From the IMG/VR virus record IMGVR_UViG_2526164619_000008, positions 1 through 12,640 of that record: a stretch of 12,640 nucleotides of DNA; one strand, written 5' to 3'. This document shows, piece by piece, positions 1-12,640 of this stretch. The notes under the pieces are model-generated. The model made no database searches. It worked only from the letters and a program-made list of their open reading frames with translations, and had not been told where the DNA came from. The stretch's first letter is position 1. Every line of letters begins with the position of its first letter. Position numbers and translations under genes: made by a program. The DNA comes from a virus. Its lineage: Duplodnaviria > Heunggongvirae > Uroviricota > Caudoviricetes.

Positions 1-141
1 TTACTGCTTACACTGTAAGAATGCCGCAAACTCCGCTCCCCAGAAGCTCATCCGTATTTCGCACAGCGAACCGTGCAGCATCCAGATGATGAGGATTGCC
101 GTCACGCAGAACGTGATGGCCGTAAGCGATTTTTGCGACAT
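1..141 (-). CDS. Hok/Gef-family type I toxin-like small membrane peptide (46 aa)
   Basis: Minus-strand ORF, ATG at 141..139, stop at 3..1, translation MSQKSLTAITFCVTAILIIWMLHGSLCEIRMSFWGAEFAAFLQCKQ. Hydrophobic N-terminal segment followed by SLCEIR and G-x-E-x-AAF with the same spacing as plasmid R1 Hok (recalled: ...[23 protein letters not shown]...). AGGAG about 8 nt upstream of the ATG. Too short to appear in the supplied ORF track. Confidence 0.6.
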   Translation of the reverse strand: MSQKSLTAITFCVTAILIIWMLHGSLCEIRMSFWGAEFAAFLQCKQ

Positions 142-331: not shown

Positions 332-592
332 TTAATTCTGAGGTAAGGGCAAACTCATCTGATTGTTTCCTCTGTGTGAAGTTGGCAGTTCATGCCACGG
401 GATGCCCTCTGATGAGTGAATGGGGGAGGCGTGCTTTGAAGTGAATTTGTGGAAGGCTTCCAGTGTTGAGAAACATACGCCGCATTCTAGATTGTTACAC
501 TGATAATACTTTTGTCTCACGGTGTTTGAATCATTTTCCGGACGACTGGTGCGGATACGGGCAGATGCGCCACAAAGCGGACAACGGAACAT
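332..592 (-). CDS. ogr: Ogr/Delta-family zinc-finger late-gene transcription activator (86 aa, divergent)
   Basis: Translation begins MFRCPLCGASARIRTSRPE...YYQCNNLECG, matching the P2 Ogr N-terminus (recalled MFHCPLCQHAAHARTSR...YHQCQNVNCS) and its Cys-x2-Cys...Cys-x4-Cys arrangement. It sits downstream of gene D in the same orientation, as in P2, but with cargo in between. Confidence 0.7.
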   Translation of the reverse strand: MFRCPLCGASARIRTSRPENDSNTVRQKYYQCNNLECGVCFSTLEAFHKFTSKHASPIHSSEGIPWHELPTSHRGNNQMSLPLPQN

Positions 593-663: not shown

Positions 664-718
664 GGTAATGCTGCCAACTTACTGATTTAGTGTATGATGG
701 TGATTTTAAGGTGCTTGC

Positions 719-994
719 ATGGCTTCCATTTCCATCAGATGTCCTTCCTGCTCCGCTACTGAAGGCGTGGTGCGTAACGGCAAAAGCACTGCCGGACATC
801 AGCGCTATCTCTGCTCTCATTGCCGTAAAACATGGCAACTACAGTTCACTTACACCGCCTCTCAGCCCGGTACGCACCAGAAAATCATTGATATGGCCAT
901 GAATGGCGTCGGATGTCGCGCCAGTGCACGCATTATGGGCGTTGGCCTCAACACGGTTTTACGTCACTTAAAAAACTCAGGCCGCAGTCGGTAA
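719..994 (+). CDS. insA: IS1 InsA transposition regulator (91 aa)
   Basis: Translation [43 protein letters not shown]... is the recognisable InsA sequence. Confidence 0.95.
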
Positions 995-1416
995 CCTCGC
1001 GCATACAACCGGGCAGTGATGTGATTGTCTGCGCTGAAATGGACGAACAGTGGGGCTACGTCGGTGCTAAATCACGTCAGCGCTGGCTGTTTTACGCGTA
1101 TGACAGGATACGGAGGACGGTTGTGGCGCACGTCTTCGGTGAACGCACTCTGGCCACACTGGAGCGTCTTCTGAGCCTGCTGTCGGCCTTTGAGGTCGTG
1201 GTATGGATGACGGATGGCTGGCCGCTGTATGAATCACGCCTGAAGGGAAAGCTGCACGTTATCAGCAAGCGTTACACTCAGCGCATTGAGCGACATAATC
1301 TGAATCTGAGACAACATCTGGCAAGGCTGGGACGGAAGTCACTGTCGTTCTCAAAATCGGTGGAGCTGCATGACAAGGTCATCGGGCATTATCTGAACAT
1401 AAAACACTATCAGTAA
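913..1416 (+). CDS. insB: IS1 InsB reading frame, normally expressed as the InsAB' transposase by -1 frameshift at the A6C run 970..976
   Basis: Translation ...[26 protein letters not shown]...[38 protein letters not shown] is the recognisable InsB; AAAAAAC motif lies in the insA/insB overlap. Confidence 0.9.
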
Positions 1417-1431
1417 GTTGGAGTCATTATC

Positions 1432-1440
1432 GACTTTCTC
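1432..1440. repeat. 9-bp target-site duplication (GACTTTCTC), right copy, of the first IS1
   Basis: Exact repeat of 655..663. Confidence 0.85.
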
Positions 1441-1464
1441 TATATAATGATTTTTAGCATTAGT

Positions 1465-1496
1465 TAATAAACGAACGGCACTCTAAGGAGCGCCGT
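1465..1496 (-). terminator. Putative intrinsic terminator of the large cargo ORF
   Basis: On the minus strand, directly after the ORF stop: a 9-bp stem (ACGGCGCTC / GAGTGCCGT, one G-U pair) with a 4-nt loop, followed by TCGTTTATT. Folded by eye only. Confidence 0.45.
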
Positions 1497-1504
1497 CAAA
1501 GATA

Positions 1505-4336
1505 TTATTCTGATGTCACTCTTTGCGAGTGAGCTATTTTTAAATCAGCGTTTCCTTCAAATACTATATTCAACTCATAGTTAAGAGTTAGCTTGAATTT
1601 ATCTGAGTCACTTTTGATATTCTCTGAAGTGACATTTACTAACTTATTATTATCATATTCTCTAATAATTAATTTAGTGAAGTAGTTATCCTTTACCACT
1701 AGAGAAAATGGTTGATTAACAAATGGTAAGAAGTAAACCTTACAGGTACCGGATTCAGTAGTTATGTTCATAGAGCCATCATCATTTTTTCTCATTAGTT
1801 CTCTGAGGTTGGGATTATCGAAAAGCATACGATTATATTGCTGAAAGATCTCTTTACTCATCACAAGAACCAGTTTGCCAGCCAAGTCAGCAGATGATTT
1901 TATGTGATCAATCAACATATTGAAATCTTCTATTACGGTATGTTGCGAACAGCCAGTGCTAAATAAATTTGAAAGTATTATTCTCTGGATGTCCTTGAGA
2001 ATTAAGTCTGCTTGAATATCACCTTCATTGATATAAGGGATGGATTCTATTCCTTCGGCATACGGTTCTTTATCTATCTTAATAGATATCTTATGTTTTG
2101 TGAAACAATCGCTAGCCTGCTTAAAATCAATAGATTTGAAAAGTGAAAGAGGGAGTGTTTTCTTGATGCGTTTACGAAGATGTTCTGATGTTTTACGTGC
2201 AGTGCTATCTAGTCGATGTACATCTATGGCAGCATCCTGAAGTCTCATATCAAGATCTTTCTTTAGCATGTTAATATGCTCTTGAAGCAACTTTCTTAAG
2301 TTTTCTTTTTTTGTTTGGAGATCGTCCAATGTTAAAGTCAGCTTGATTTTAGTGTATTCGATGGAGTTACAAATTTTTGATAATACTCCAATGAGTCGTT
2401 GCTTCTCACGATATGTTATATAGTTTTTTTCTATTGCTTCTTTTATTTCTTTTGATACGCTATCGTTCTTGTTAGAAAAAATTAATAATAGCTGAACCCA
2501 TGATTGTTCCATATCAATAAATCCACAGTCAAAAACATTACTGTAAACTCTGCCCATCACCATGTCTGTTTTATCATAGTCACGTAAACGCCTTGCTAAA
2601 CTATTCATCCACCCATTGTGCTCCATATTTTCAGACCATGTCCACAGGCAGATTCTAATTAATATCTTGATTAGTTGGCTTGCATTATCAATTTCTTCAG
2701 TGGGAGTTTCATATCCACCGGTTTGGTCAATAAGTTTACCCTCTAAAATAAGTTTAATGTAATGTGTCATTAATTTGTCAGAAATATTGATTCTTGATGT
2801 CAGATAAAGACATGTGCATATACGCATGTCAGTCAACGCATTTATGATGGCAATATTGAACCACTCTCTGTCTGAATTGAAGTTTAGTTTTTTGGATATG
2901 AAAAAACCCGGGTTAAAAAGCTGGCCTTTGTAACTGTATTTTTCTACCGAATGGCTGTCAATATTCATTGAGTGCTGCCATCGGTTAATAAGAACGACGG
3001 CTGTATCAATAGTAGAAGGATCGCGAGTCTGTGTTGCATCAATAATCATCGATGGAAGTTCTTGTAGTTGCGTTTTGCAAAATAATTCAAATAAATCTGA
3101 ATTCTCTGTATTGCAGAAACGAAAGTTTATGCTTTCTTGATATTGCTCCCAAACAGTGGTATAGGTTCTTAATATACGATTATAACGTGAACGAAGCGAG
3201 GCATTTAAGAGTGATTGGTTGTTTCGGAACCATTCTGTTAATATTGACCATTGTGAACGAGTAATTCCCATATAGATACAAAGTTCATTGGTGATAAGAT
3301 GTTTTCTATTATTGATAATACGCACTCCGCTCCAAAGACATAATTCAAAAAATCTTTCAGAAAGATTAATTTTATCCATGGAATTATTTGATATTTTATA
3401 AACTTCATCTGAAAACTCATATTGAAAACTCCGTTCAAATAATTCTGTAGTGATCAGTAAGAAGTTATTGTTGGTATTATCATCTTGAAAAAAATACAAA
3501 TCGCAGAGATTATTAAAGTTATTAATTAATGCAGAGATAGCATTGTCAAAACTAATGAGATCAGAATCCCGCAGATACATATACGTATCTGCTGTTATAG
3601 CCTGCATTGTAAGACTTACGGAAAAATCTCCTCCTTTAATCGGAGCCCTATAAAAACATTGCTTAAGTATTTTTATTAATAAGCTGTCTGGTTTGATATT
3701 TTTAACGCTAAAAAGTATCTTACCCGTGGATTCTGTTTCTTTTGTACGATTATCACCAATGACAAATGACGCAAAATGATTCTTCTTTTTTAGTTGGTAA
3801 TTAATAAGATTAAGAGTAAGTTGAAAAGGACGGTGATATAAACTTAACTCATCTTCCTTAGAATAACTGCTAGCCACAGATATGTATTCTCCTTTGTAAC
3901 CGGCTTGCTTGATTTCTAAATTTGAATAGTTATGTTTTTGATAGATAGGGTATAACCTAAGCTTGGCTGAGATTTTGTTACAAATATGGGGCATTACTAT
4001 TTCGAAGGCAATGTATCGCTTTATAATTATTTGCCGTTTTACATCATCAAGAATTTCAAGACTCACGATAAAGAACCAAATAGAAAGAACTATGTTTATC
4101 AAAAGCCATAATATGCTGATTAGACAAGCTATACCATAAAGATAACTTCCAAAGACAGTTTTAATTAGTACACTGAGAAGTATAAATCCTGATAAGAAAA
4201 GCCCGCTGAGTCCAGCAAGCATGAATCCTGAGTAACGCTGATAAGCAGTTTGGGCTATTTTTCTATCTGCCTTTTTTTGGAATAAGACACTTACTAAACC
4301 TATAACAAGTGGGTATACAATACCAATAATTGTCAA
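1505..4336 (-). CDS. Large orphan protein (~943 aa) with a hydrophobic N-terminal region (about three predicted transmembrane helices) and a long Ile/Asn/Lys-rich soluble domain with coiled-coil-like stretches; function unknown
   Basis: Single uninterrupted ORF in a visibly AT-rich segment. The ORF-track start is TTG at 4336; the first in-frame ATG is at 4222 (codon 39), so the true start is uncertain. No Walker A or other catalytic motif recognised by eye. Confidence 0.7.
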   Translation of the reverse strand: MTIIGIVYPLVIGLVSVLFQKKADRKIAQTAYQRYSGFMLAGLSGLFLSGFILLSVLIKTVFGSYLYGIACLISILWLLINIVLSIWFFIVSLEILDDVKRQIIIKRYIAFEIVMPHICNKISAKLRLYPIYQKHNYSNLEIKQAGYKGEYISVASSYSKEDELSLYHRPFQLTLNLINYQLKKKNHFASFVIGDNRTKETESTGKILFSVKNIKPDSLLIKILKQCFYRAPIKGGDFSVSLTMQAITADTYMYLRDSDLISFDNAISALINNFNNLCDLYFFQDDNTNNNFLLITTELFERSFQYEFSDEVYKISNNSMDKINLSERFFELCLWSGVRIINNRKHLITNELCIYMGITRSQWSILTEWFRNNQSLLNASLRSRYNRILRTYTTVWEQYQESINFRFCNTENSDLFELFCKTQLQELPSMIIDATQTRDPSTIDTAVVLINRWQHSMNIDSHSVEKYSYKGQLFNPGFFISKKLNFNSDREWFNIAIINALTDMRICTCLYLTSRINISDKLMTHYIKLILEGKLIDQTGGYETPTEEIDNASQLIKILIRICLWTWSENMEHNGWMNSLARRLRDYDKTDMVMGRVYSNVFDCGFIDMEQSWVQLLLIFSNKNDSVSKEIKEAIEKNYITYREKQRLIGVLSKICNSIEYTKIKLTLTLDDLQTKKENLRKLLQEHINMLKKDLDMRLQDAAIDVHRLDSTARKTSEHLRKRIKKTLPLSLFKSIDFKQASDCFTKHKISIKIDKEPYAEGIESIPYINEGDIQADLILKDIQRIILSNLFSTGCSQHTVIEDFNMLIDHIKSSADLAGKLVLVMSKEIFQQYNRMLFDNPNLRELMRKNDDGSMNITTESGTCKVYFLPFVNQPFSLVVKDNYFTKLIIREYDNNKLVNVTSENIKSDSDKFKLTLNYELNIVFEGNADLKIAHSQRVTSE

Positions 4337-4871
4337 TTGGCCACTTAAAATGGTTGTTTGCCATTCGGTTAATGAATGCCTAAACGGGAAATAATGTAAA
4401 AGATTATTTTTTATAAATAATTCGTTTAAATATCCAACATAAAGTAGTACAAATGAAAAAGCTGATATGCAAAGTACTGATTTAACCGGTGAGGATGTTA
4501 ATCTTATGATGTTTTTTCAATAAAATTCCATTTTAAATTCGAATAAAATGGATTTTTAACCATTTTATTACGAACATAGTTCTTTGCTAAAATCTCTGTT
4601 GCACTTAAAAATTGTCCAATCATGAATTACTCTTCTATAAAGTGTGGGTCTACTAACTAAACTGGAATTTTTACTATTGAGTCATATTCCCTTGGACGGG
4701 ATGGACTGTGAAGATTATACTTGACTTCCTCTGTCATGTGGGAAAAACATCCGTATTATTGTTAGCATCTGGTTGATGCCCCAACCTCTGACATCTAGTG
4801 GGCTGATACATTATCTTTTGTTCTTACTGTCAGTGTAGAAGCACATCTCAAAAATAATATTTTTAAGAGAT
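4337..4871 (-). promoter_or_regulatory. AT-rich ~535-bp non-coding leader between the D stop and the cargo ORF; presumed promoter/regulatory region
   Basis: No ORF longer than ~26 codons on either strand; composition shifts abruptly at the gene D stop codon (4872). Confidence 0.35.
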
Positions 4872-5980
4872 TTATTCTATTTCTGCTATCCATTCCGGGA
4901 TTTTTGCTTCAAGTTCAAGCTGCGTGGTAAAGCCGCTGTTATCAATGGTGTGCTCGGCTTTTGCAATAATCCAGTCCTGATAATCAATCTCGCTTTTAAA
5001 GCCTGTCACTGTGCCATGCATTTCGGGATAGAGTTCTGCACGACCACGCGCCAGCGTGATGGAGAATGATGCGGCTCCGCGTTGTAGCTGCTGCCACTTT
5101 GCCGCCGCTGCGCGTCTTGCTGCCTGCTCGTTCTGATAAGTCTTGCGTAACACAAACACGTTGCCTTCCGCACCTTCCATATAGTCGCCTTCCCGACTGC
5201 TGCTTTTCTCCTTTTTGGGTTTTGGCGGTTTGCGGCGTTTCACGTTGACTTTTTTCTTTTCCCGTAATTAAGATCAAGCCAGTAGGCGCGTACCCCTGTA
5301 TACGCCTCGCGGTCAGCAATGCGGAACTGATGGCGATCGCCGCTGCTGCGTGTAATGGCGAACGAGGGCAACGGCTGCCCCTGTGCGTTCACGCCACCAC
5401 CTGGCATGATGAATAACAGATTGCCGCTTTTTACCGTGGCGATTGCTCCCAGCATTTCCGCCATGCGCGTAAGAAAGGACATGTCGCTTTCTTCGGTCTG
5501 GTCGGCGTGGTCGATTTCGATATCCATCAGCATTTCGCTGATTTGCGGTTTCAGGCCGTACCGATGAGCGATGGCGGATACCACACGCTCAACGGTCACA
5601 TCATGCCAGGACACCTCACGTTTAACGTTAAATTCATCCCGAAAATCTGCGCTTCTGGCTGAAACAGTCAGCCTGTCCGGCGGTCCTTCGTGAGCGATTT
5701 CATCAACAATGTAAGTGCCTTTTTCTGTCAGCGGTTCCCCTTTCCAGCCAATGAGAACCGTCAGACGCGCGCCCCGTGGCGGTAGCTGCAACTGACCATC
5801 CGCATCATCCAGCGTGATGGTGAGCTGGTCCGCCTCAAATCCCCGGTTGTCGGTCAGTGACAGGCACATCAGGCGCTCCGCCACGCCTGACAGCGTTTTA
5901 CCCTCCGAGAGAATATCAAAATCCGGCATTTTCACGGGGGCCGTGCCCTGACTGAGCAATTGCATGGTGGTGTCGGTCAT
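4872..5980 (-). pseudogene. D: P2-type tail protein D, interrupted by one frameshift in a homopolymer run (5250..5255)
   Basis: Two adjacent minus-strand ORFs (5240..6112 and 4872..5243) together match gpD (LTDNRGFEADQLTITLDDADGQLQLP..., SWHD, ITRSSGDRHQFRIADREAYTGV, REGDYMEGAEGNVFVL, GFTTQLELE). Adding one A to the AAAAAA run restores ...GKRKKVNVKRRKPPKPKKE.... Likely start is ATG at 5980 (MTDTTMQLL) with AGGGAGGGAG upstream. Confidence 0.85.
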
Positions 5981-6137
5981 CTGCTCCCTCCCTGTGCGGC
6001 ATGGTCGCATGTGCGTGCGGATGGGGTTACTGCTTTTTGTTGTCGCCGTGGCGGGAGAACGGCGCAGGGGTGAGATTGCGCGCGTGGTGGGTGATGATTG
6101 TTGCTGAATCATTTAACGGATACAAGGGGCTGAAGCT

Positions 6138-7322
6138 ATGAGTGAAACTCGTTTTCATGGTGCCCGTGTTACGGAGAATACCGACCTGGTAACAGCGATT
6201 AACGATGTTGATTCCAGCGTTATCGGTATCGTGGCAACGGCGGATGATGCGGACGCGAAGCTGTTCCCGCTGAACAAGCCCACACTGCTGACCCGCGTCA
6301 ATGACGTGCTGGGAAAATGCGGGACAACGGGGACGCTTTATCGTGCGCTTAAGGCCATCGCAGACCAGGTGAGCACAAAGGTGATCGTCGTTCGCGTGGC
6401 TGAACACAAAGAAGAAGACGGAAAGACGCAGGATCAACTGGTTATCGGTGGTTCTGAGGATGACGGCAGCTATACGGGGATGTATGCGCTGCTTGTTGCA
6501 GAGCAGGATGAAAGCATCGGATACCGTCCGCATATTCTGGCCGCGCCGGAGCTGGACACGGAGGCGGTAACAAAATCCCTGTGCGTGATTGCAGATAAAC
6601 TGCGCGCGTTTGTGTATGCCTCATGTCATGGCTGTAACACGATGGCCGAGGCAATTACCTACCGCCAGAAATTCAACGAACGTGAGGTGATGCTCTTATG
6701 GCCGGACTTCATCGCCTACAACCCGAAAAATGGCAAAAACGAAACGTTCCCCGCGCCTGCCTATGCGTGCGGCCTTCGTGCGTACATTGACCATGAACAG
6801 GGATGGCACAAATCGCTGTCCAACGTTCCGGTTAAAAATGTGCTGGGGATGTCGAGGCATGTGTTCTGGTCGTTGCAGGCCGAAGACAGCGATGCCAACA
6901 GCCTCAACAACAAAGAAATCACGACCATTATTCGTCGCAACGGGTTCCGCTTCTGGGGTAACCGCACACCGGAAACGAATGCCTACATCTTTGAGGTGTA
7001 TACCCGAACCGCACAGGTGCTGGCTGATTCAATTGCGGAAGCGCAGTTTGAAACCATCGACAGTCCACTGACGCCTGCGAATGTGAAGGATGTTATCAGT
7101 GCCATCAGGGCAAAACTGGATTCACTGGTGACTGCCGGGAAACTGATTGGCGCGGAGTGCTGGTATGACGTGGTGGATAACAGCACCACGGATTTACGTC
7201 AGGGACGTGTGCGTATTCGCTACAAATATACGCCCGTTCCGCCACTGGAAGACATGGAGCTTTACCAGACGTTTACTGATGAATACTTTGAACCCGCATT
7301 TGCGGTGCTGGGAGGTGCCTGA
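6138..7322 (+). CDS. FI: P2-type contractile tail sheath protein FI (394 aa)
   Basis: Translation contains DADAKLFPLNKPTLL, KLRAFVYAS, LLWPDF, EQGWHKSLSNV, RRNGFRFWGNRT, YTRTAQVLAD, YKYTPVPPLE, which match recalled P2 FI blocks; size matches (P2 FI ~396 aa); AAGGGG RBS. Confidence 0.9.
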   Translation: MSETRFHGARVTENTDLVTAINDVDSSVIGIVATADDADAKLFPLNKPTLLTRVNDVLGKCGTTGTLYRALKAIADQVSTKVIVVRVAEHKEEDGKTQDQLVIGGSEDDGSYTGMYALLVAEQDESIGYRPHILAAPELDTEAVTKSLCVIADKLRAFVYASCHGCNTMAEAITYRQKFNEREVMLLWPDFIAYNPKNGKNETFPAPAYACGLRAYIDHEQGWHKSLSNVPVKNVLGMSRHVFWSLQAEDSDANSLNNKEITTIIRRNGFRFWGNRTPETNAYIFEVYTRTAQVLADSIAEAQFETIDSPLTPANVKDVISAIRAKLDSLVTAGKLIGAECWYDVVDNSTTDLRQGRVRIRYKYTPVPPLEDMELYQTFTDEYFEPAFAVLGGA

Positions 7323-7819
7323 TGGCTGTGCCAAAACATCTTCGCTTTTTTACGCTGTTTGTGGATGGTGAAAACGAAGTGGGTAAGGTGACGTCCGTCA
7401 CTCTGCCTAAGCTGACGCGCAAAACCGACAGCTACCGGGGTGGTGGCATGATGGGTGCGGTAAGTATTGATCTCGGTCTGGACGACTCCGCGCTTGATGC
7501 GAGCTTTGTCATGGGGGGCGCAGTTCGTGAGCTGTTCCTTAAGTATGGCGGCACGATTGACGGCACGCTGCTGCGTTTTGCGGGTGAATACTACACCGAT
7601 GCAGAAAGCGACCTGTATGAAGTCGAAATGCGCGGACGTGTGACGGAAATTGATATGGGCGAAGCCACATCACACACTTACGCCATTAAAAACACCTACT
7701 ACAAGCTGAGTGTTAACGATCGCCCGTTGTGGGAGATTGACCTGCTGAACTTCATTTACCGGAAGGACGGCAAGGACATTGTGCCCGATCGCATCCGTTC
7801 CGCGCTTGGGCTTGGCTGA
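7322..7819 (+). CDS. FII: P2-type tail tube protein FII (165 aa)
   Basis: Start overlaps the FI stop (TGATG); GGAGGTG RBS; position and size match P2 FII. Confidence 0.85.
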   Translation: MAVPKHLRFFTLFVDGENEVGKVTSVTLPKLTRKTDSYRGGGMMGAVSIDLGLDDSALDASFVMGGAVRELFLKYGGTIDGTLLRFAGEYYTDAESDLYEVEMRGRVTEIDMGEATSHTYAIKNTYYKLSVNDRPLWEIDLLNFIYRKDGKDIVPDRIRSALGLG

Positions 7820-7874
7820 TAAGTAATATGCTGGCGGCGCAGTGCGTCGCCTCTGACTGAAAAGGAGACAACAG

Positions 7875-8249
7875 ATGAAAGACATCGATACTGAAACCCG
7901 GAATAACACCGTGGCGGATAATGTGACGGCAGTTGAGGATATGGCTGTCGAACGTGGCGTAAAACTGACCCGACCAATTGAGCGTGGTGGCGAAAAAATC
8001 ACGTATGTGGAGATCACCGGGGCTATTGAGCAGGCTGGATCCCTGCGTGGTCTGTCGCTGTCTGATGCGCTGAATCTGAAAGCGGATACCATGTTCACGC
8101 TGTTGCCTCGCGTGACCTCGCCACGACTGGATGAAGTGATGATTAAAAAAATGTCGTCACGCGATTTTATTCAGTTGTGCGCTGTGGCTGTAAATTTTAT
8201 GAGCGAGCCAGACTCTGGCGCGAAGAGCGTGCAGGAGACGGCAGCGTAA
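7875..8249 (+). CDS. E: Tail assembly chaperone E-like protein (124 aa)
   Basis: Called by synteny (directly after FII), AAAGGAG RBS 7 nt upstream of the ATG, and an overlapping -1 frame ORF as in the P2 E/E' pair. Not confirmed by sequence identity. Confidence 0.65.
   Translation: MKDIDTETRNNTVADNVTAVEDMAVERGVKLTRPIERGGEKITYVEITGAIEQAGSLRGLSLSDALNLKADTMFTLLPRVTSPRLDEVMIKKMSSRDFIQLCAVAVNFMSEPDSGAKSVQETAA
8192..8198 (+). other. Candidate -1 programmed frameshift heptamer A_AAT_TTT joining E to E'
   Basis: Zero-frame codons AAT TTT preceded by A give an X_XXY_YYZ heptamer inside the 8177..8249 overlap of the E frame and the -1 frame. Confidence 0.4.
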
Positions 8250-8389
8250 TCACCCTGGTGTGCTTTGAGCACATCGAAGATCTGGTGGCGGATATTGCCG
8301 CCATTTTTAACTGGTCGCCCGCCGAAATCTTCATGATGACGCCCGGCGAAGTGGTTAGCTGGCGTGAGCGGGCGGCACTTCGTAGCGGG
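8198..8389 (+). pseudogene. E' extension reading frame (-1 relative to E), 3' end cut by IS1
   Basis: The -1 frame stays open from 8177 and runs into IS1 with no native stop (...EVVSWRERAALRSGG then IS1-encoded NAANLLI*). Confidence 0.55.
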
Positions 8390-8444
8390 GGTAATGCTGC
8401 CAACTTACTGATTTAGTGTATGATGGTGATTTTAAGGTGCTTGC

Positions 8445-8720
8445 GTGGCTTCCATTTCCATCAGATGTCCTTCCTGCACCGCTACTGAAGGCGTGGTGCG
8501 TAACGGCAAAAGCACTGCCGGACATCAGCGCTATCTCTGCTCTCATTGCCGTAAAACATGGCAACTACAGTTCACTTACACCGCCTCTCAGCCCGGTACG
8601 CACCAGAAAATCATTGATATGGCCATGAATGGCGTCGGATGTCGCGCCAGTGCACGCATTATGGGCGTTGGCCTCAACACGGTTTTACGTCACTTAAAAA
8701 ACTCAGGCCGCAGTCGGTAA
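8445..8720 (+). CDS. insA: IS1 InsA (91 aa; GTG start in this copy)
   Basis: Same protein as 719..994 with one substitution (S12T); start codon GTG here versus ATG in the first copy. Confidence 0.95.
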
Positions 8721-9142
8721 CCTCGCGCATACAACCGGGCAGTGATGTGATTGTCTGCGCTGAAATGGACGAACAGTGGGGCTACGTCGGTGCTAAATCA
8801 CATCAGCGCTGGCTGTTTTACGCGTATGACAGGATACGGAGGACGGTTGTGGCGCACGTCTTCGGTGAACGCACTCTGGCCACACTGGAGCGTCTTCTGA
8901 GCCTGCTGTCGGCCTTTGAGGTCGTGGTATGGATGACGGATGGCTGGCCGCTGTATGAATCACGCCTGAAGGGAAAGCTGCACGTTATCAGCAAGCGTTA
9001 CACTCAGCGCATTGAGCGACATAATCTGAATCTGAGACAACATCTGGCAAGGCTGGGACGGAAGTCACTGTCGTTCTCAAAATCGGTGGAGCTGCATGAC
9101 AAGGTCATCGGGCATTATCTGAACATAAAACACTATCAGTAA
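8639..9142 (+). CDS. insB: IS1 InsB reading frame (InsAB' via -1 frameshift at A6C 8696..8702)
   Basis: Same as 913..1416 with one substitution (R55H). Confidence 0.9.
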
Positions 9143-9157
9143 GTTGGAGTCATTACC

Positions 9158-10353
9158 GAGTCGCGCATGGTGGCCCCGTTCCATTTGGGGTTCGGATGAC
9201 CGTTCTCCGTTGTTGCGTGGTATTTTGACGGGCAGTTGACAGTCAGAAACACCGCTTTGTCACCACGGGCTTCGGCCAGAGGTTCCAGCCCCTTCATGGT
9301 GGCCATCATTTCTGCCTTACGGTGAACCGGGTTACTTACTCCCGCGTAATACACTGTCTCGAGATCAATCGTGAACCCGTCTTCATTTTCCAGCATGAAA
9401 CTTTTCAGGAAATCGCGTGTTTTCTCGCGCTGTGCGCGAAACTCGCTTAACGCGTCCTGGCTCAGATAGGGCGATGTTTTTCTGAAAACCAGACAGGCGG
9501 CGCGGAGTTGTTCTTCTCTCCACTCGCAACGTAACAGCCACAGTTTGCGTTTCCACCATTCTGCACAGGTCAGGCGAAGGATTGCGCCCGGCAGCAGCTC
9601 CGTGTCCGGTTCGTTCCTCCGGTCTTTGTCTGTTGTCAGTGCGTCATAATGTGGAGGCATGGCGTGCAGGTGTAACGCCATGCGGGCCAGCATCTGATAC
9701 GCCTTCAGCGTTACATCCATGGTCAGTTCGCCATCGGTCGCGCCAAAGCCATCGCAGAGTTTTTCGAAGGTGCTGCTGAACATCGCTGCCGTCATGGTGG
9801 CCAGTGTCTGTATCTGGTGTTTGTTGAGCTGCGGCAGGTAAAGCAAATCGTCCAGGCGTTCGCGTCCGGCAAGGGAGCGATAACCCTGTGTCAGCCAGCG
9901 GTGATCGGTGCGCTCCAGACGTTCGAATATTTTGCGCAGGTTTCCGCGCGCGTAGCGTTCAGCCTGCCAGCTCTTTTTGCCTTTCTGACGATCGGCTTCC
10001 TGTTTTTTGCGCAGGAAGGAGAGGTGGCGAATAAGCGGATCGCGCAGATAGGACGGCAGCAGGCGCAGCGAGGCCATGGCTTCATCCACCGCGCCGCGTG
10101 CCTGTTTTCTGGCATCTCCTGCCAGTGTGATGGTTTTGTCCTGTTTTTCCTGTGCGTCCAGGCTTTTATTAATCAGGTTGCCCAGCGGCGTTGCGGAGAA
10201 CGCCGCATCAGCCATTTCCTGGCGGCGCTCGTTCTCTACCCGGTAGGCATCCAGCCAGGAGGAAAGCGCGGATTCAGGAGCGGGGATCCCCGTTCCTTCA
10301 CGCCCCACTGCGTGGCGCGGTTGTTGCCAGTCCCTGATGTACTCTGCCGTCAT
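9158..10353 (-). pseudogene. A: P2-type replication initiation protein A, N-terminal ~398 codons only; 3' part replaced by IS1
   Basis: Translation has HAVGREGTG and FLTVNCPSKYHATT blocks resembling recalled P2/186 A-protein motifs; the ORF runs from ATG 10353 into the IS1 right end, whose sequence supplies the last 7 codons and stop. P2 A is ~761 aa, so the catalytic C-terminal half is missing. Confidence 0.7.
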
Positions 10354-10359
10354 AGTGAT

Positions 10360-10725
10360 TTACTTCGTCATGCCATTCAGGGTGTCGCGGCAGACTGTAG
10401 CCAGCCGCTGAATTTCCAGCACGGTGTCTTCTGTGTCGGCATGGCGATGTGTGATGCGGATGCTGTCGGCAATCACATCGACGATTGCAGAGGATGGGCG
10501 CTGGTAAATGCCAATAACGGACGGGGTGCCACCTTCAATGCGGTAAAGCCTGTAATTTCCCTCGTGGCTGTCAATCATGTAGCGACCATCAATAACAATC
10601 TTTCCGTCAGCGAGCTGCGGTACAGGCAGGGATTTCAGGTACATGTCATAACGATCACGTACGCGAGCGGCAAGATCACGTTCTGTGTTGAGCAGGTATT
10701 CAAGAAAGTCGTTGGCGAGAATCAT
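10360..10725 (-). CDS. Hypothetical protein (121 aa), early-operon gene directly upstream of A
   Basis: ORF with AGAGGA RBS 8 nt upstream of the ATG; stop 6 nt before the A start; not recognised. Confidence 0.6.
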   Translation of the reverse strand: MILANDFLEYLLNTERDLAARVRDRYDMYLKSLPVPQLADGKIVIDGRYMIDSHEGNYRLYRIEGGTPSVIGIYQRPSSAIVDVIADSIRITHRHADTEDTVLEIQRLATVCRDTLNGMTK

Positions 10726-10866
10726 TGCGGCAATCCTCTTGTTACAGATGTGCGAAGGCCTCCCGCCGCAAGGTGCAGGAAAGGCCCGGAATAGGAATTA
10801 ATGGAGTTTGTTTTGCTGCCGGATGAGCAGCTGAAGCCCGACGTGGTTTCCGGCAGTTGGAGGTGC

Positions 10867-11112
10867 TCATGCTCTGATTTCCCTCAGTAGCTGGTTGAAC
10901 ATCTGGGTTAGTGGGTTGCTACACCCAAACGGCATCGGGTTTACCTGATAAGAAAAGCGCCCGCCTGTTTTGCGCTCTTTTCTTATGACTGAACCGCTGC
11001 GCCAGAGACGGCGTAGCTCCGCATTAATGGTTGTGGTTGGTGTATTCAGTACTGCGGCGATTTCTCCACCGCTACAACCCGGATTGGCAGCGATGTAGTC
11101 CAGAATGATCAT
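10867..11112 (-). CDS. Hypothetical small protein (81 aa), possibly a winged-helix DNA-binding protein
   Basis: AGGAG RBS 8 nt upstream; ATGA start/stop overlap with the upstream ORF suggests translational coupling. Confidence 0.55.
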   Translation of the reverse strand: MIILDYIAANPGCSGGEIAAVLNTPTTTINAELRRLWRSGSVIRKERKTGGRFSYQVNPMPFGCSNPLTQMFNQLLREIRA

Positions 11113-11312
11113 CTGCGTGACTCCTGTACCTGTCTGATAAGATTTACCTGCACCACGTTGGTGGCGCAGAAGTAAGTGCCGTCAGTGAGATAGATGTGAT
11201 GTGCATCCTTTTCTGAACGGTGTTTGTCGATTGTGGTAATCAGGCGTTCGTCAACTTCGTATTCACGTCCTCTGGAGGTGAAACGAACGACAGGAAAATG
11301 CTTAATTGCCAT
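11109..11312 (-). CDS. Hypothetical small protein (67 aa from the ATG at 11312)
   Basis: Strong AAGGAGG RBS 5 nt upstream of the internal ATG (MAIKHFPVVRF...); the ORF track begins earlier at a GTG (11363) with no RBS. Confidence 0.55.
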   Translation of the reverse strand: MAIKHFPVVRFTSRGREYEVDERLITTIDKHRSEKDAHHIYLTDGTYFCATNVVQVNLIRQVQESRR

Positions 11313-11398
11313 TACGCCTCCTTGGCGTGTGCGAATACCTCCGCGAATGCGGATTGTTTTCACATTTTCTTATTTAACCTGGGGTCTTATTTGCGCGG

Positions 11399-11512
11399 TT
11401 ATTCTTCAGTGAAAAAGCGTTCAATCTTTTTTACTGAATTAATAATTCGCATAATCCCAATGGCGCAGACCACCGAAATAATCAGAACAAGCCATGAGAT
11501 AAATATACTCAT
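11399..11512 (-). CDS. Small hydrophobic peptide (37 aa), single predicted transmembrane helix
   Basis: Translation MSIFISWLVLIISVVCAIGIMRIINSVKKIERFFTEE; its ATG overlaps the TGA of the upstream ORF (ATGA). Absent from the ORF track because it is under 60 aa. Confidence 0.4.
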   Translation of the reverse strand: MSIFISWLVLIISVVCAIGIMRIINSVKKIERFFTEE

Positions 11513-11751
11513 GCGATATTTCCCAGCTTATACGGTTCAATATGTTCCCCGCATTCTGCGGCACAGATCAGCTCGGAAAGTTCGTTAAGTGCATCCAGAT
11601 CATCAGCGTAAAAAGCCACGTCATACAGACTTCGGATTGCTCTGGTCAATGAGTCACGGGCCGCACGTTCAGCATGAGCGCCTGATGCACTTAAGCGAAA
11701 ATAAAAACGCTCAAGTGCTTTGTTAATGAGAGTTTTATATTCTTTGCCCAT
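11509..11751 (-). CDS. Hypothetical protein (80 aa)
   Basis: ORF in the same minus-strand operon; weak RBS; not recognised. Confidence 0.5.
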   Translation of the reverse strand: MGKEYKTLINKALERFYFRLSASGAHAERAARDSLTRAIRSLYDVAFYADDLDALNELSELICAAECGEHIEPYKLGNIA

Positions 11752-11762
11752 AACAACGCCCT

Positions 11763-12050
11763 TTAATCTGCTTTCTGTATTTCAGCTTCTGAATCCATAC
11801 AAATAATTTCGATATAGGGTTCATCGCCATTAACCTGGCGTGCCTTTTCAGCTTCGCTAATGATTTCTCGTACGGTCTGGTACGGAAGTTCCACAAGCAG
11901 TCGCGTGCCGTTCAGATAAACGTAAGTGGCTTCGTCGGCTCCGTTTTTACCCGCCGGAGTCACTCCGTCAATAGCGGATGCACGTAATAACAGTTCACCG
12001 CGAAAATCAATAAAACGGATAAATACACCTTGTGCATGGTCTTTGGTCAT
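11763..12050 (-). CDS. Hypothetical protein (95 aa from the ATG at 12050)
   Basis: AGGTG RBS 4 nt upstream of the internal ATG (MTKDHAQGVFIRF...); the longer track ORF would overlap the upstream gene. Confidence 0.5.
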   Translation of the reverse strand: MTKDHAQGVFIRFIDFRGELLLRASAIDGVTPAGKNGADEATYVYLNGTRLLVELPYQTVREIISEAEKARQVNGDEPYIEIICMDSEAEIQKAD

Positions 12051-12060
12051 AAAGCACCTG

Positions 12061-12266
12061 TTATAAATCAGTCTGTTTAATAAAACTTTGCCCGCGAAGC
12101 AGACGATCAACCGTGCGAAGTGCTTCGTATAATGTGAAATCCTGCCCGAACTGATTGTCGCCACAGCTCAATGCAAAAATGCGGTTTCCGGTAAACGGAT
12201 TGCGTGGGCATTTGTGGATCACGATTCCAGCTTTCTCAATCAGCCAGGTGTGCTCGCCGATTTGTT
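12061..12266 (-). pseudogene. 5'-truncated gene fragment (C-terminal ~68 codons) cut by IS911
   Basis: The minus-strand ORF 12061..12339 takes its first ~24 codons from IS911 left-end sequence; native coding starts at the IS911 boundary (12266) with no internal Met. Confidence 0.45.

Positions 12267-12640
<374 letters not shown>

Follow-up and report, generated by a model that had tools for sequence, protein, structure and literature searches.

The prophage remnant between ihfA and btuC

The stretch of DNA analysed here (hereafter the window, 12,640 nucleotides) is 100% identical to contig AKMY01000025.1 of Shigella flexneri K-315, a 2012 draft of an IS1-rich genome. On this contig pheT-ihfA lie to its left and btuCED to its right, and the prophage lies between ihfA and btuC. 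The window holds the remnant of a P88-like prophage (Xuanwuvirus, Peduoviridae): its DNA from D to E matches phages P88, P884B11 and others at 94-96% identity and 100% coverage, and tail-module identity and gene order both place it in this group. Its features are as follows.

1-141, minus strand: hok/gef-family toxin, a 46-aa ORF at the end of the prophage that adjoins ihfA (PHROG 251 'MokW-like host killing', E=1e-22)
332-592, minus strand: ogr, late-gene activator with a zinc finger (Pfam PF04606 Ogr_Delta, E=5e-14)
655-663: target-site duplication of the left IS1, copy 1, GACTTTCTC (read from the sequence)
664-1431, plus strand: left IS1, IS1F-type, 768 bp (repeats, frames, NCBIfam, comparison with IS1F and IS1SD); left inverted repeat 664-686, right inverted repeat 1409-1431; insA 719-994 (ATG start), A6C motif at 970, insB frame 913-1416
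1432-1440: target-site duplication of the left IS1, copy 2, GACTTTCTC (nine extra bases relative to ETEC4088)
1505-4624, minus strand: cargo ORF, 1039 aa in relatives, about four N-terminal transmembrane helices
4872-5980, minus strand: D, phage tail (late control/baseplate hub; Pfam PF05954 on both pieces)
6138-7322, plus strand: FI, tail sheath (Pfam Phage_sheath_1, Gp18_domIII_N, sheath_1C)
7322-7819, plus strand: FII, tail tube, a 165-aa allele common to other prophages (Pfam PF04985, E=1e-40)
7875-8249, plus strand: E, tail assembly chaperone (weak Pfam PF10109; PHROG 103 'tail protein', E=2e-35)
8258-8389, plus strand: E' (GpE family); the right IS1 removes the last 24 nt before the natural stop
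8390-9157, plus strand: right IS1, IS1F-type, 768 bp (repeats, frames, NCBIfam); left inverted repeat 8390-8412, right inverted repeat 9135-9157; insA 8445-8720 (GTG start), A6C motif at 8696, insB frame 8639-9142
9158-10353, minus strand: replication gene A, 5' part (Pfam PF05840, profile positions 1-216 of 321, E=1e-77)
10360-12266, minus strand: small early-region genes (phrog_3237, MarR-like HTH, relatives of DUF4754 and DUF4761)
12267-12640, plus strand: IS3-family element, left end and orfA (ORF 12155-12640; Pfam HTH_Tnp_1 on the K-315 gene)

The first gene is also annotated as Hok/Gef in the prophage of E. coli ETEC4088 and in phage P88. An Rfam scan of the window gave no match at gathering thresholds. 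The gene order is the same as in P88 and the P2-like Xuanwuvirus group, namely hok-ogr-D(-) followed by FI-FII-E-E'-T-U(+). Reading the head-to-head arrangement of D(-) and FI(+) as an inversion was rejected, as the window shares this layout with the isolated phage P88 and its relatives, where it is the normal order. Unlike P88, the window is reduced to ogr, D, FI, FII, E, a portion of A and a handful of early genes; between ogr and D it has an additional cargo of 3.4 kb, low in GC, that is absent from P88. The full virion, lysis, replication and integration modules are not present, with about 24.2 kb and about 2.5 kb absent relative to the ETEC4088 prophage; the truncated A and the frameshifted D also show that this is a remnant.

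At the right end of the window, homology to ETEC4088 ceases at 12267. The IS3-family element that begins there, probably IS911 by its OrfA sequence, and another rve-family IS replace positions 35571-38021 of the ETEC4088 prophage sequence, where cox, C and int lie. This third IS, with one nested in it, probably removed the three genes. As cox, C, int and the 24.2 kb discussed below are lost, the remnant would be unable to excise or to make particles.

In the K-315 draft the cargo ORF contains a homopolymer change, T7-to-T6, at 4511 that shifts its frame. The longest ORF left spans 1505-4336 (943 aa, TTG start), and its product is EIQ23557.1 of this strain. In D, the frame is interrupted at 5256 by a T5-to-T4 change, which leaves ORFs 4872-5243 and 5240-5980 (open frame to 6112); an intact D ORF of 366-413 aa is present in ETEC4088, in P88 and in an independent short-read contig (L010, see below). 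Both frameshifts had been overlooked in the original prediction. The cargo has no Pfam, NCBIfam, PADLOC, PHROG or PDB-sequence match. It belongs to a family of uncharacterised membrane proteins of about 1040-1070 aa. P88-like phages have a close homologue in their variable ogr-D slot, and more distantly related proteins are encoded on many enterobacterial plasmids. It occurs in five of 5,426 complete E. coli genomes, once in each and always between ogr and D, and its DNA has no match among 50,697 phages. A 99% plasmid match to the cargo DNA was discarded: the record is in fact linear chromosomal DNA of S. boydii 600657, a fragment under a wrong label that carries the same prophage, and does not represent a plasmid context. 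The 1039-aa, four-helix membrane protein of the ogr-D slot is a candidate anti-phage or exclusion gene.

Two IS1 copies with separate histories

A repeat search and a base-by-base comparison place the two IS1 copies at 664-1431 and 8390-9157, both on the plus strand and 768 bp each, with a start-to-start spacing of 7,726 bp and homology that ends sharply on both sides. They enclose an interval of 6,958 bp (1432-8389) with the cargo ORF, D, FI, FII, E and the start of E'. The original prediction of two near-identical copies in the same orientation with about four differences was accurate: there are exactly four substitutions (left/right: 719 A/G, 752 T/A, 1076 G/A and 1430 T/C), or 99.48% identity. 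Both copies have 23-nt imperfect terminal inverted repeats (arms of 23-25 nt, 84-87% complementary), a 91-codon insA and a 167-codon insB frame, and the frameshift motif TTAAAAAAC (A6C) at 970 and 8696, and all four of their ORFs match NCBIfam NF033558 'IS1 family transposase'. They are about 99% identical to the IS1F of K-12 (7 differences in 768) and about 91% to IS1SD. Length, inverted repeats, frames and isoform identity hence identify both as IS1, while a target duplication is found at the left copy only. The alternative of a segmental duplication or chance similarity, with no mobile element involved, has only the bare existence of a repeat in its favour and is rejected outright given the exact 768-bp unit with its terminal inverted repeats, IS1 frames and IS1F identity, and given IS1 matches in 5,088 of the 5,426 E. 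coli genomes (median, 11 places per genome).

With IS1F and IS1SD as references, each copy has two private derived changes, and thus neither is a fresh copy of the other. One of these changes, the T at 1430, lies in the right end of the left IS1, where GGTAATG has become GATAATG. Contig L010 has both the T at 1430 and the G at 8445, and the internal differences 752/8478 and 1076/8802 are read from the K-315 draft only.

The left IS1 is a simple insertion. It is bordered by a perfect 9-bp duplication, and ETEC4088 has the matching empty site, with GACTTTCTC in single copy at 1277-1285 of its prophage sequence. Ordinary transposition placed it, with duplication of 9 bp, 72 bp upstream of ogr and, on its other side, 74 bp downstream from the end of the cargo ORF. 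A protein look-up with the 63-aa ORF that spans the left outer junction (647-838) returned K-315 itself only, and so no other isolate with this junction; among Shigella, the comparison consisted of exact-protein look-ups and one S. boydii record, a thin sample of the closest relatives.

The right IS1 has a different appearance. Its flanks, ending in GTAGCGGG on the left and beginning with GAGTCGCGC on the right, have no 8-9-bp repeat in common. On the ETEC4088 prophage they map, in the same orientation, to positions 8251 and 32497, which are 24,245 bp apart. The element joins a truncated gpE' to a truncated gpA, and about 24.2 kb of the prophage is absent at this point. The lost part comprises the end of E' with T and U, the invertase gene, the genes for tail fibres, baseplate, lysis, capsid, terminase and portal, the gpA-gpQ accessory locus, and 1.6 kb at the 3' end of gene A. 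The E' ORF runs into the IS1 to 8416, and the resulting 52-aa fusion is WP_000333502.1 of Shigella boydii, encoded on contig L010. Gene A is truncated at 9158 and its ORF has its stop codon inside the IS1, at 9136 (the full-length protein of ETEC4088 has 947 aa). The same truncated A protein is found on five contigs of other assemblies.

Judged by where its flanks map, the right IS1 is a deletion scar, which the original prediction had overlooked. The deletion of about 24.2 kb was probably made by IS1, either by intramolecular transposition (adjacent deletion) or by recombination between two earlier IS1 copies. Both routes would erase the target duplication, and therefore the sequence fits either one.

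The link from E' to gpA' across the right IS1 is given by the K-315 draft assembly alone. One could therefore propose that an IS1 in E' and another in gpA, with the 24 kb still between them, were collapsed into a single copy by the assembler. The source is an early draft of an IS1-rich strain; the Logan assemblies that match the window exactly, probably built from the K-315 reads themselves (SRR066117 and SRR066119), stop in IS1; and assemblies of other isolates also end inside IS1. However, both flanks derive from one prophage and are oriented as a simple deletion would leave them, a result seldom expected if the assembler had misjoined two of more than 100 IS1 copies at random. Furthermore, the prophage is degraded elsewhere too (int is gone, D and the cargo are frameshifted), and the contig runs on correctly into btuC. 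We consider such a collapse very unlikely and retain the deletion scar as our reading of the right copy.

The warning in the original prediction that this region is prone to assembly error was justified, as independent short-read contigs break inside exactly these IS1 copies. Two of them end 74-77 nt inside the elements: L010 corresponds to window positions 1355-8463 and L004 to 9084-12340. In the draft GCA_049894805.1, the interval forms a 7,111-nt contig that ends in IS1 copies and has no mismatches to the window, the T at 1430 included, and a second contig carries the IS1-gpA' junction. The inner junctions and the right outer junction are identical in this draft. Judged on these junctions, the arrangement has been inherited unchanged in at least one other isolate.

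Potential for movement of the interval as a unit

At the sequence level, the pair has what a Tn9-type transposon requires, namely a passenger between two IS1 copies, usable outer ends and intact transposase frames. With its canonical outer ends and both transposase frames open, the unit could in principle transpose as 8,494 bp. RecA-dependent recombination could also remove 7,726 bp; two 768-bp repeats with 99.5% identity are a suitable substrate for it, as had been predicted, and the circle produced would be able to re-enter at any further IS1 copy. In the left IS1 the inner end is mutated, which if anything should steer transposition towards the outer pair of ends, as would suit a latent compound transposon. 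Hence, the description of the pair as a substrate for homologous deletion or composite-transposon-like movement holds as far as the direct repeats, intact ends and intact frames are concerned, but no movement is seen in the assembled sequences.

The outer flanks do not match: 655-663 is GACTTTCTC and 9158-9166 is GAGTCGCGC, with five of nine positions identical, and there is no duplication around the whole unit. The interior is native prophage sequence, 99.3-99.4% identical to and collinear with the IS-free ETEC4088 prophage, in which interior and left flank are contiguous. Unmatched outer flanks and an interior collinear with IS-free relatives mean that the unit was not inserted as a block. 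Neither the comparison with ETEC4088 nor the search of E. coli genomes, plasmids and phages revealed a foreign passenger or a second context. Neither IS1 junction, nor a single-IS1 deletion product, occurs in the 5,426 complete E. coli genomes, and no cargo flanked by IS1 is found among 72,556 plasmids and 50,697 phages. An exact-pattern scan of the GTDB species-representative genomes for the right and left outer junctions also gave no match, which is expected as Shigella is merged into E. coli there.

These findings bear directly on the proposal that a functional Tn9-like compound transposon has carried, or still carries, the cargo ORF and the tail genes as a unit. The direct IS1 repeats with canonical outer ends (664-686 and 9135-9157), the open insA and insB with the frameshift motif in both copies, and the derived change in the inner end of the left IS1 agree with it, as does the finding that high-activity IS1 pairs about 7.5 kb apart transposed as units in laboratory evolution (PMC12065110). 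It is nevertheless contradicted by the lack of a duplication around the unit, by the left copy having a duplication and an empty site of its own, by the contiguous native DNA of the interior, by the lack of a second context in the genomes, plasmids and phages searched, and by the identical junctions in another isolate; we regard it as extremely unlikely. A nascent compound transposon, or a 7.7-kb circle able to excise and to enter elsewhere at another IS1, is a further possibility that we consider very unlikely. If true, it would let the cargo leave a dying P88-like prophage for replicons such as the invasion plasmid, and would provide a concrete path from phage accessory loci to plasmids.

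No sign is seen that the interval was ever lost or moved as a unit: the left IS1 has a duplication and an empty site of its own, the right IS1 marks the 24.2-kb deletion, the interior is native and the outer flanks differ. Related genomes that carry the interval elsewhere, or lack it precisely between IS1 copies, were not found among the E. coli genomes, plasmids and phages. Very probably, each IS1 copy arose independently in a P88-like prophage as part of the IS1 expansion that is typical of Shigella, and the arrangement only resembles a Tn9-type transposon. The pair belongs to ordinary Shigella genome decay by separate events, with no documented movement.

Relation to known IS1-flanked structures and Shigella decay

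In Tn9 (IS1-cat-IS1) and in the IS1-flanked r-determinant of R100/NR1, direct IS1 copies flank a passenger. Such structures can transpose by their outer ends, lose the passenger by recombination between the two IS1 copies, or amplify it. The window, too, has direct IS1 copies around a passenger segment. In contrast to Tn9, its unit lacks a surrounding duplication and is known from a single location, the histories of the two copies are separate, and its passenger is native prophage DNA, 7 kb of defective phage genes and a frameshifted ORF with no selectable trait. Direct IS copies around a cargo with no shared target duplication are also reminiscent of the pseudo-compound transposons of IS26 and IS1216. 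Elements of the IS26 family carry out conservative, targeted reactions of translocatable units. IS1 is not known to perform reactions of this type, and a circle formed here would therefore need homologous recombination to re-enter. A direct IS pair should be called a compound transposon only when there is a shared target duplication, a foreign cargo or recurrence elsewhere, and none of these is present here.

The closest counterpart is the IS-driven decay of Shigella genomes itself. Shigella chromosomes contain 229-348 IS insertions, mostly IS1; deletions driven by IS elements are known, and IS-driven gene loss has been described for all Shigella lineages (PMC7373316). IS1 generates duplications of 8-9 bp, and pairs of IS1 may turn into compound transposons, the classic case being Tn9 (PMC12065110). 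The right copy resembles Shigella IS1 deletions in that it has no target duplication and adjoins the 24-kb loss. It is of the IS1F type, a resident variant in E. coli chromosomes (one copy in K-12). There is no essential difference from Shigella decay, except that the affected target is a prophage and not a metabolic gene.

The locus is one more instance of such decay. As a worked example it presents IS1 dismantling a Shigella prophage, with a simple insertion, a deletion scar and a third IS that appears to have removed the integrase, and it also explains why short-read assemblies fragment at this locus. The cargo is an only mildly interesting by-product, and beyond such bookkeeping the case carries little weight.

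The same prophage in S. boydii 600657 contains two other IS1 copies, of the IS1SD type, inverted and 5 kb apart, each of which is a simple insertion. In a Shigella host, chance alone should place some IS1 copies within a few kb of each other, a point that had been overlooked in the original prediction.

Provenance and structure of the IS1 pair

Exact-protein look-ups and sequence comparison place the window in contig AKMY01000025.1 of Shigella flexneri K-315 (GCA_000268165.1), which it matches at 100% over 12,640/12,640 bases, at a locus flanked by pheT-ihfA and btuCED. The phage genes are those of a P88-like peduovirus (genus Xuanwuvirus); from D to E, the sequence shares 94-96% identity with phages P88 and P884B11. 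An inversion as the origin of the head-to-head D(-)/FI(+) layout was rejected, since this is the normal order in both of these isolated phages. E. coli ETEC4088 has a complete, nearly identical prophage (99.3-99.4%) at this site, which carries no IS1 across the region matching the window and served as the reference for our comparisons. At the prophage end by ogr lies a Hok/Gef-family toxin gene (1-141, minus strand), as in phage P88, with no Sok-type RNA beside it at Rfam gathering thresholds.

IS1 copies found by repeat search (window coordinates)
664-1431, plus strand: left IS1, 768 bp, direct repeat of the right IS1
8390-9157, plus strand: right IS1, 768 bp, direct repeat of the left IS1

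The original prediction gave the position and orientation of these copies correctly, and its "about four" differences are exactly four substitutions in a base-by-base comparison (719 A/G, 752 T/A, 1076 G/A and 1430 T/C), with similarity stopping sharply at either end of the 768 bp. Both copies have imperfect terminal inverted repeats of 23 nt, insA (91 codons) and insB (167 codons) frames that overlap at the frameshift motif TTAAAAAAC, and a match to the NCBIfam entry 'IS1 family transposase'; both are ~99% identical to IS1F of E. coli K-12 and ~91% to IS1SD. When the differences are polarised with IS1F and IS1SD as outgroups, each copy proves to have two private derived changes, and hence neither is a fresh duplicate of the other. 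Those of the left copy are a GTG to ATG change of the insA start (719) and, in the second position of its inner (right) end, a G to A substitution (1430), which may cripple its own transposition. Those of the right copy are InsA S12T and InsB R55H.

Two separate events

The left IS1 lies between ogr and a large accessory ("cargo") ORF, 72 bp upstream of the former and 74 bp downstream of the latter. The nine bases GACTTTCTC flank it at 655-663 and 1432-1440 and are present a single time in ETEC4088; the left IS1 is a simple insertion. The flanks of the right IS1 contain no target duplication. Its left flank ends with ...GTAGCGGG, 24 nt short of the natural stop of gpE', and its right flank begins with GAGTCGCGC... 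within the replication gene A. In ETEC4088, 24,245 bp of prophage separate these flanks, which have the same orientation. Together with the missing duplication, this leads us to infer that the right IS1 is the scar of an IS1-mediated deletion. The stretch lost relative to ETEC4088 comprises T, U, the invertase, the tail fibre and baseplate genes, the lysis, capsid, terminase and portal genes, the gpA-gpQ accessory locus, and 1.6 kb at the 3' end of gene A. Either intramolecular transposition of one IS1 copy or recombination between two earlier copies could have produced such a deletion, and the two routes fit the sequence equally well.

A further rearrangement begins at 12267, where an IS3-family element (window 12267-12640 and beyond; 14946-17525 in locus L007), which from its OrfA sequence we take to be IS911, together with a nested rve-family IS replaces ~2.5 kb of the prophage, including cox, C and int. 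As int has been replaced, the prophage is a locked remnant without an integrase.

The cargo gene and the question of a compound transposon

Cargo ORF and the slot between ogr and D
Cargo ORF, minus strand: window 1505-4624; 151-3270 in L010 (a 7,111-nt contig of draft GCA_049894805.1); 1350-4469 in L003 (the ETEC4088 prophage)
ogr-D slot: window 1441-4871; L002 8121-8164; L008 5730-7559; L009 1557-3386

The content of the ogr-D slot varies from one P88-like prophage to another: EC476 and P88 have an empty slot, two other prophages encode a SEC-C-motif protein of 374-379 aa there, and 5/5,426 E. coli genomes as well as some Shigella have the 1039-aa membrane protein. The slot is distinct from the gpA-gpQ hotspot described for P2-like phages (PMC9122126). 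The intact cargo protein (1039 aa) has ~4 N-terminal transmembrane helices, which in its family (~1040-1070 aa) are accompanied by a large helical domain and a C-terminus rich in beta structure. No match was found in Pfam, NCBIfam, PADLOC, PHROG or among PDB sequences, and the RefSeq name 'MFS transporter' is unsupported and looks wrong. Homologues with 50-70% identity occur in Erwinia, Pantoea (plasmids included) and metagenomic assemblies. Large enterobacterial plasmids, in roughly 1000 contigs, encode others of 1069 aa with ~27% identity; their neighbours there are an AAA_15/21 ATPase, a RES-domain protein and a PIN/MazE pair. A role in defence or exclusion is plausible.

The interval between the IS1 copies (1432-8389) had been proposed as a unit that could be deleted or moved. 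In structure the pair could be a compound transposon, as its IS1 repeats are direct, like those of Tn9, its outer ends are canonical and its transposase frames are open. This potential stands. Comparison with relatives gives no evidence that the unit moved or was lost, and none of the features of unit movement was found. There is no duplication around the whole unit (outer flanks GACTTTCTC versus GAGTCGCGC), and in the IS-free ETEC4088 prophage the left flank continues directly into the interior. Neither IS1 junction is present in any of 5,426 complete E. coli genomes; nor is the single-IS1 deletion product, expected as a flank-plus-IS1 match over ~78% of the query. The cargo DNA occurs in five of these genomes, once in each and always adjoining D, and has no match in the phage collection. 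Its one close plasmid match (NZ_CP049283.1, 'plasmid unnamed', PLSDB) was rejected as a plasmid context, being a mislabelled chromosome fragment of S. boydii 600657.

This linear 26.7-kb record is a fragment of the same P88-like prophage, 99.6% identical to the ETEC4088 prophage, with two other IS1 copies, IS1SD-type, inverted and 5 kb apart, each with its own duplication. Such separate insertions show that IS1 pairs arise readily in this prophage. Shigella reference chromosomes contain 229-348 IS insertions, 46-73% of them IS1 (PMC7373316). At that density, IS1 copies would lie on average roughly 18-43 kb from each other, and we estimate that each genome should contain dozens of IS1 pairs separated by less than 8 kb. 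There is positive evidence for two separate IS1 events, and we consider a nascent compound element that exports an accessory gene of the prophage highly improbable. The structure is of an already known kind, in an already published genome.

Inheritance, assembly breaks and frameshifts

In the independent draft GCA_049894805.1, the interval forms the 7,111-nt contig, which begins 77 nt inside the left IS1 and ends 74 nt inside the right one; it matches the window with 0 mismatches and shares the derived T at 1430. A second contig of 3,257 nt leads from 74 nt inside the right IS1 through gpA', the truncated A gene, to the IS at 12267, and similar contigs are present in several further assemblies. 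Hence, both inner junctions, as well as the right outer one, are inherited in a lineage. The predicted assembly hazard is also borne out, as short-read assemblies break exactly at the IS1 copies. The K-315 draft is the sole source of the join across the right IS1, and its assembly might have collapsed two IS1 copies into one at this point, a reading that we regard as quite unlikely compared with a deletion scar.

Relative to ETEC4088 and other isolates, K-315 has lost one T from a homopolymer in both the cargo ORF (T7 to T6 at 4511) and D (T5 to T4 at 5256), shifting both frames. Both genes are intact in L010, locus L011 and ETEC4088, and the K-315 losses may be either real decay (pseudogenisation) or sequencing errors of the 2012 draft. 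At 7656, the FII tube gene, a 165-aa allele, lacks 15 nt relative to that of ETEC4088 (170 aa); as the same allele is found in unrelated E. coli prophages, it represents allelic variation, not damage.
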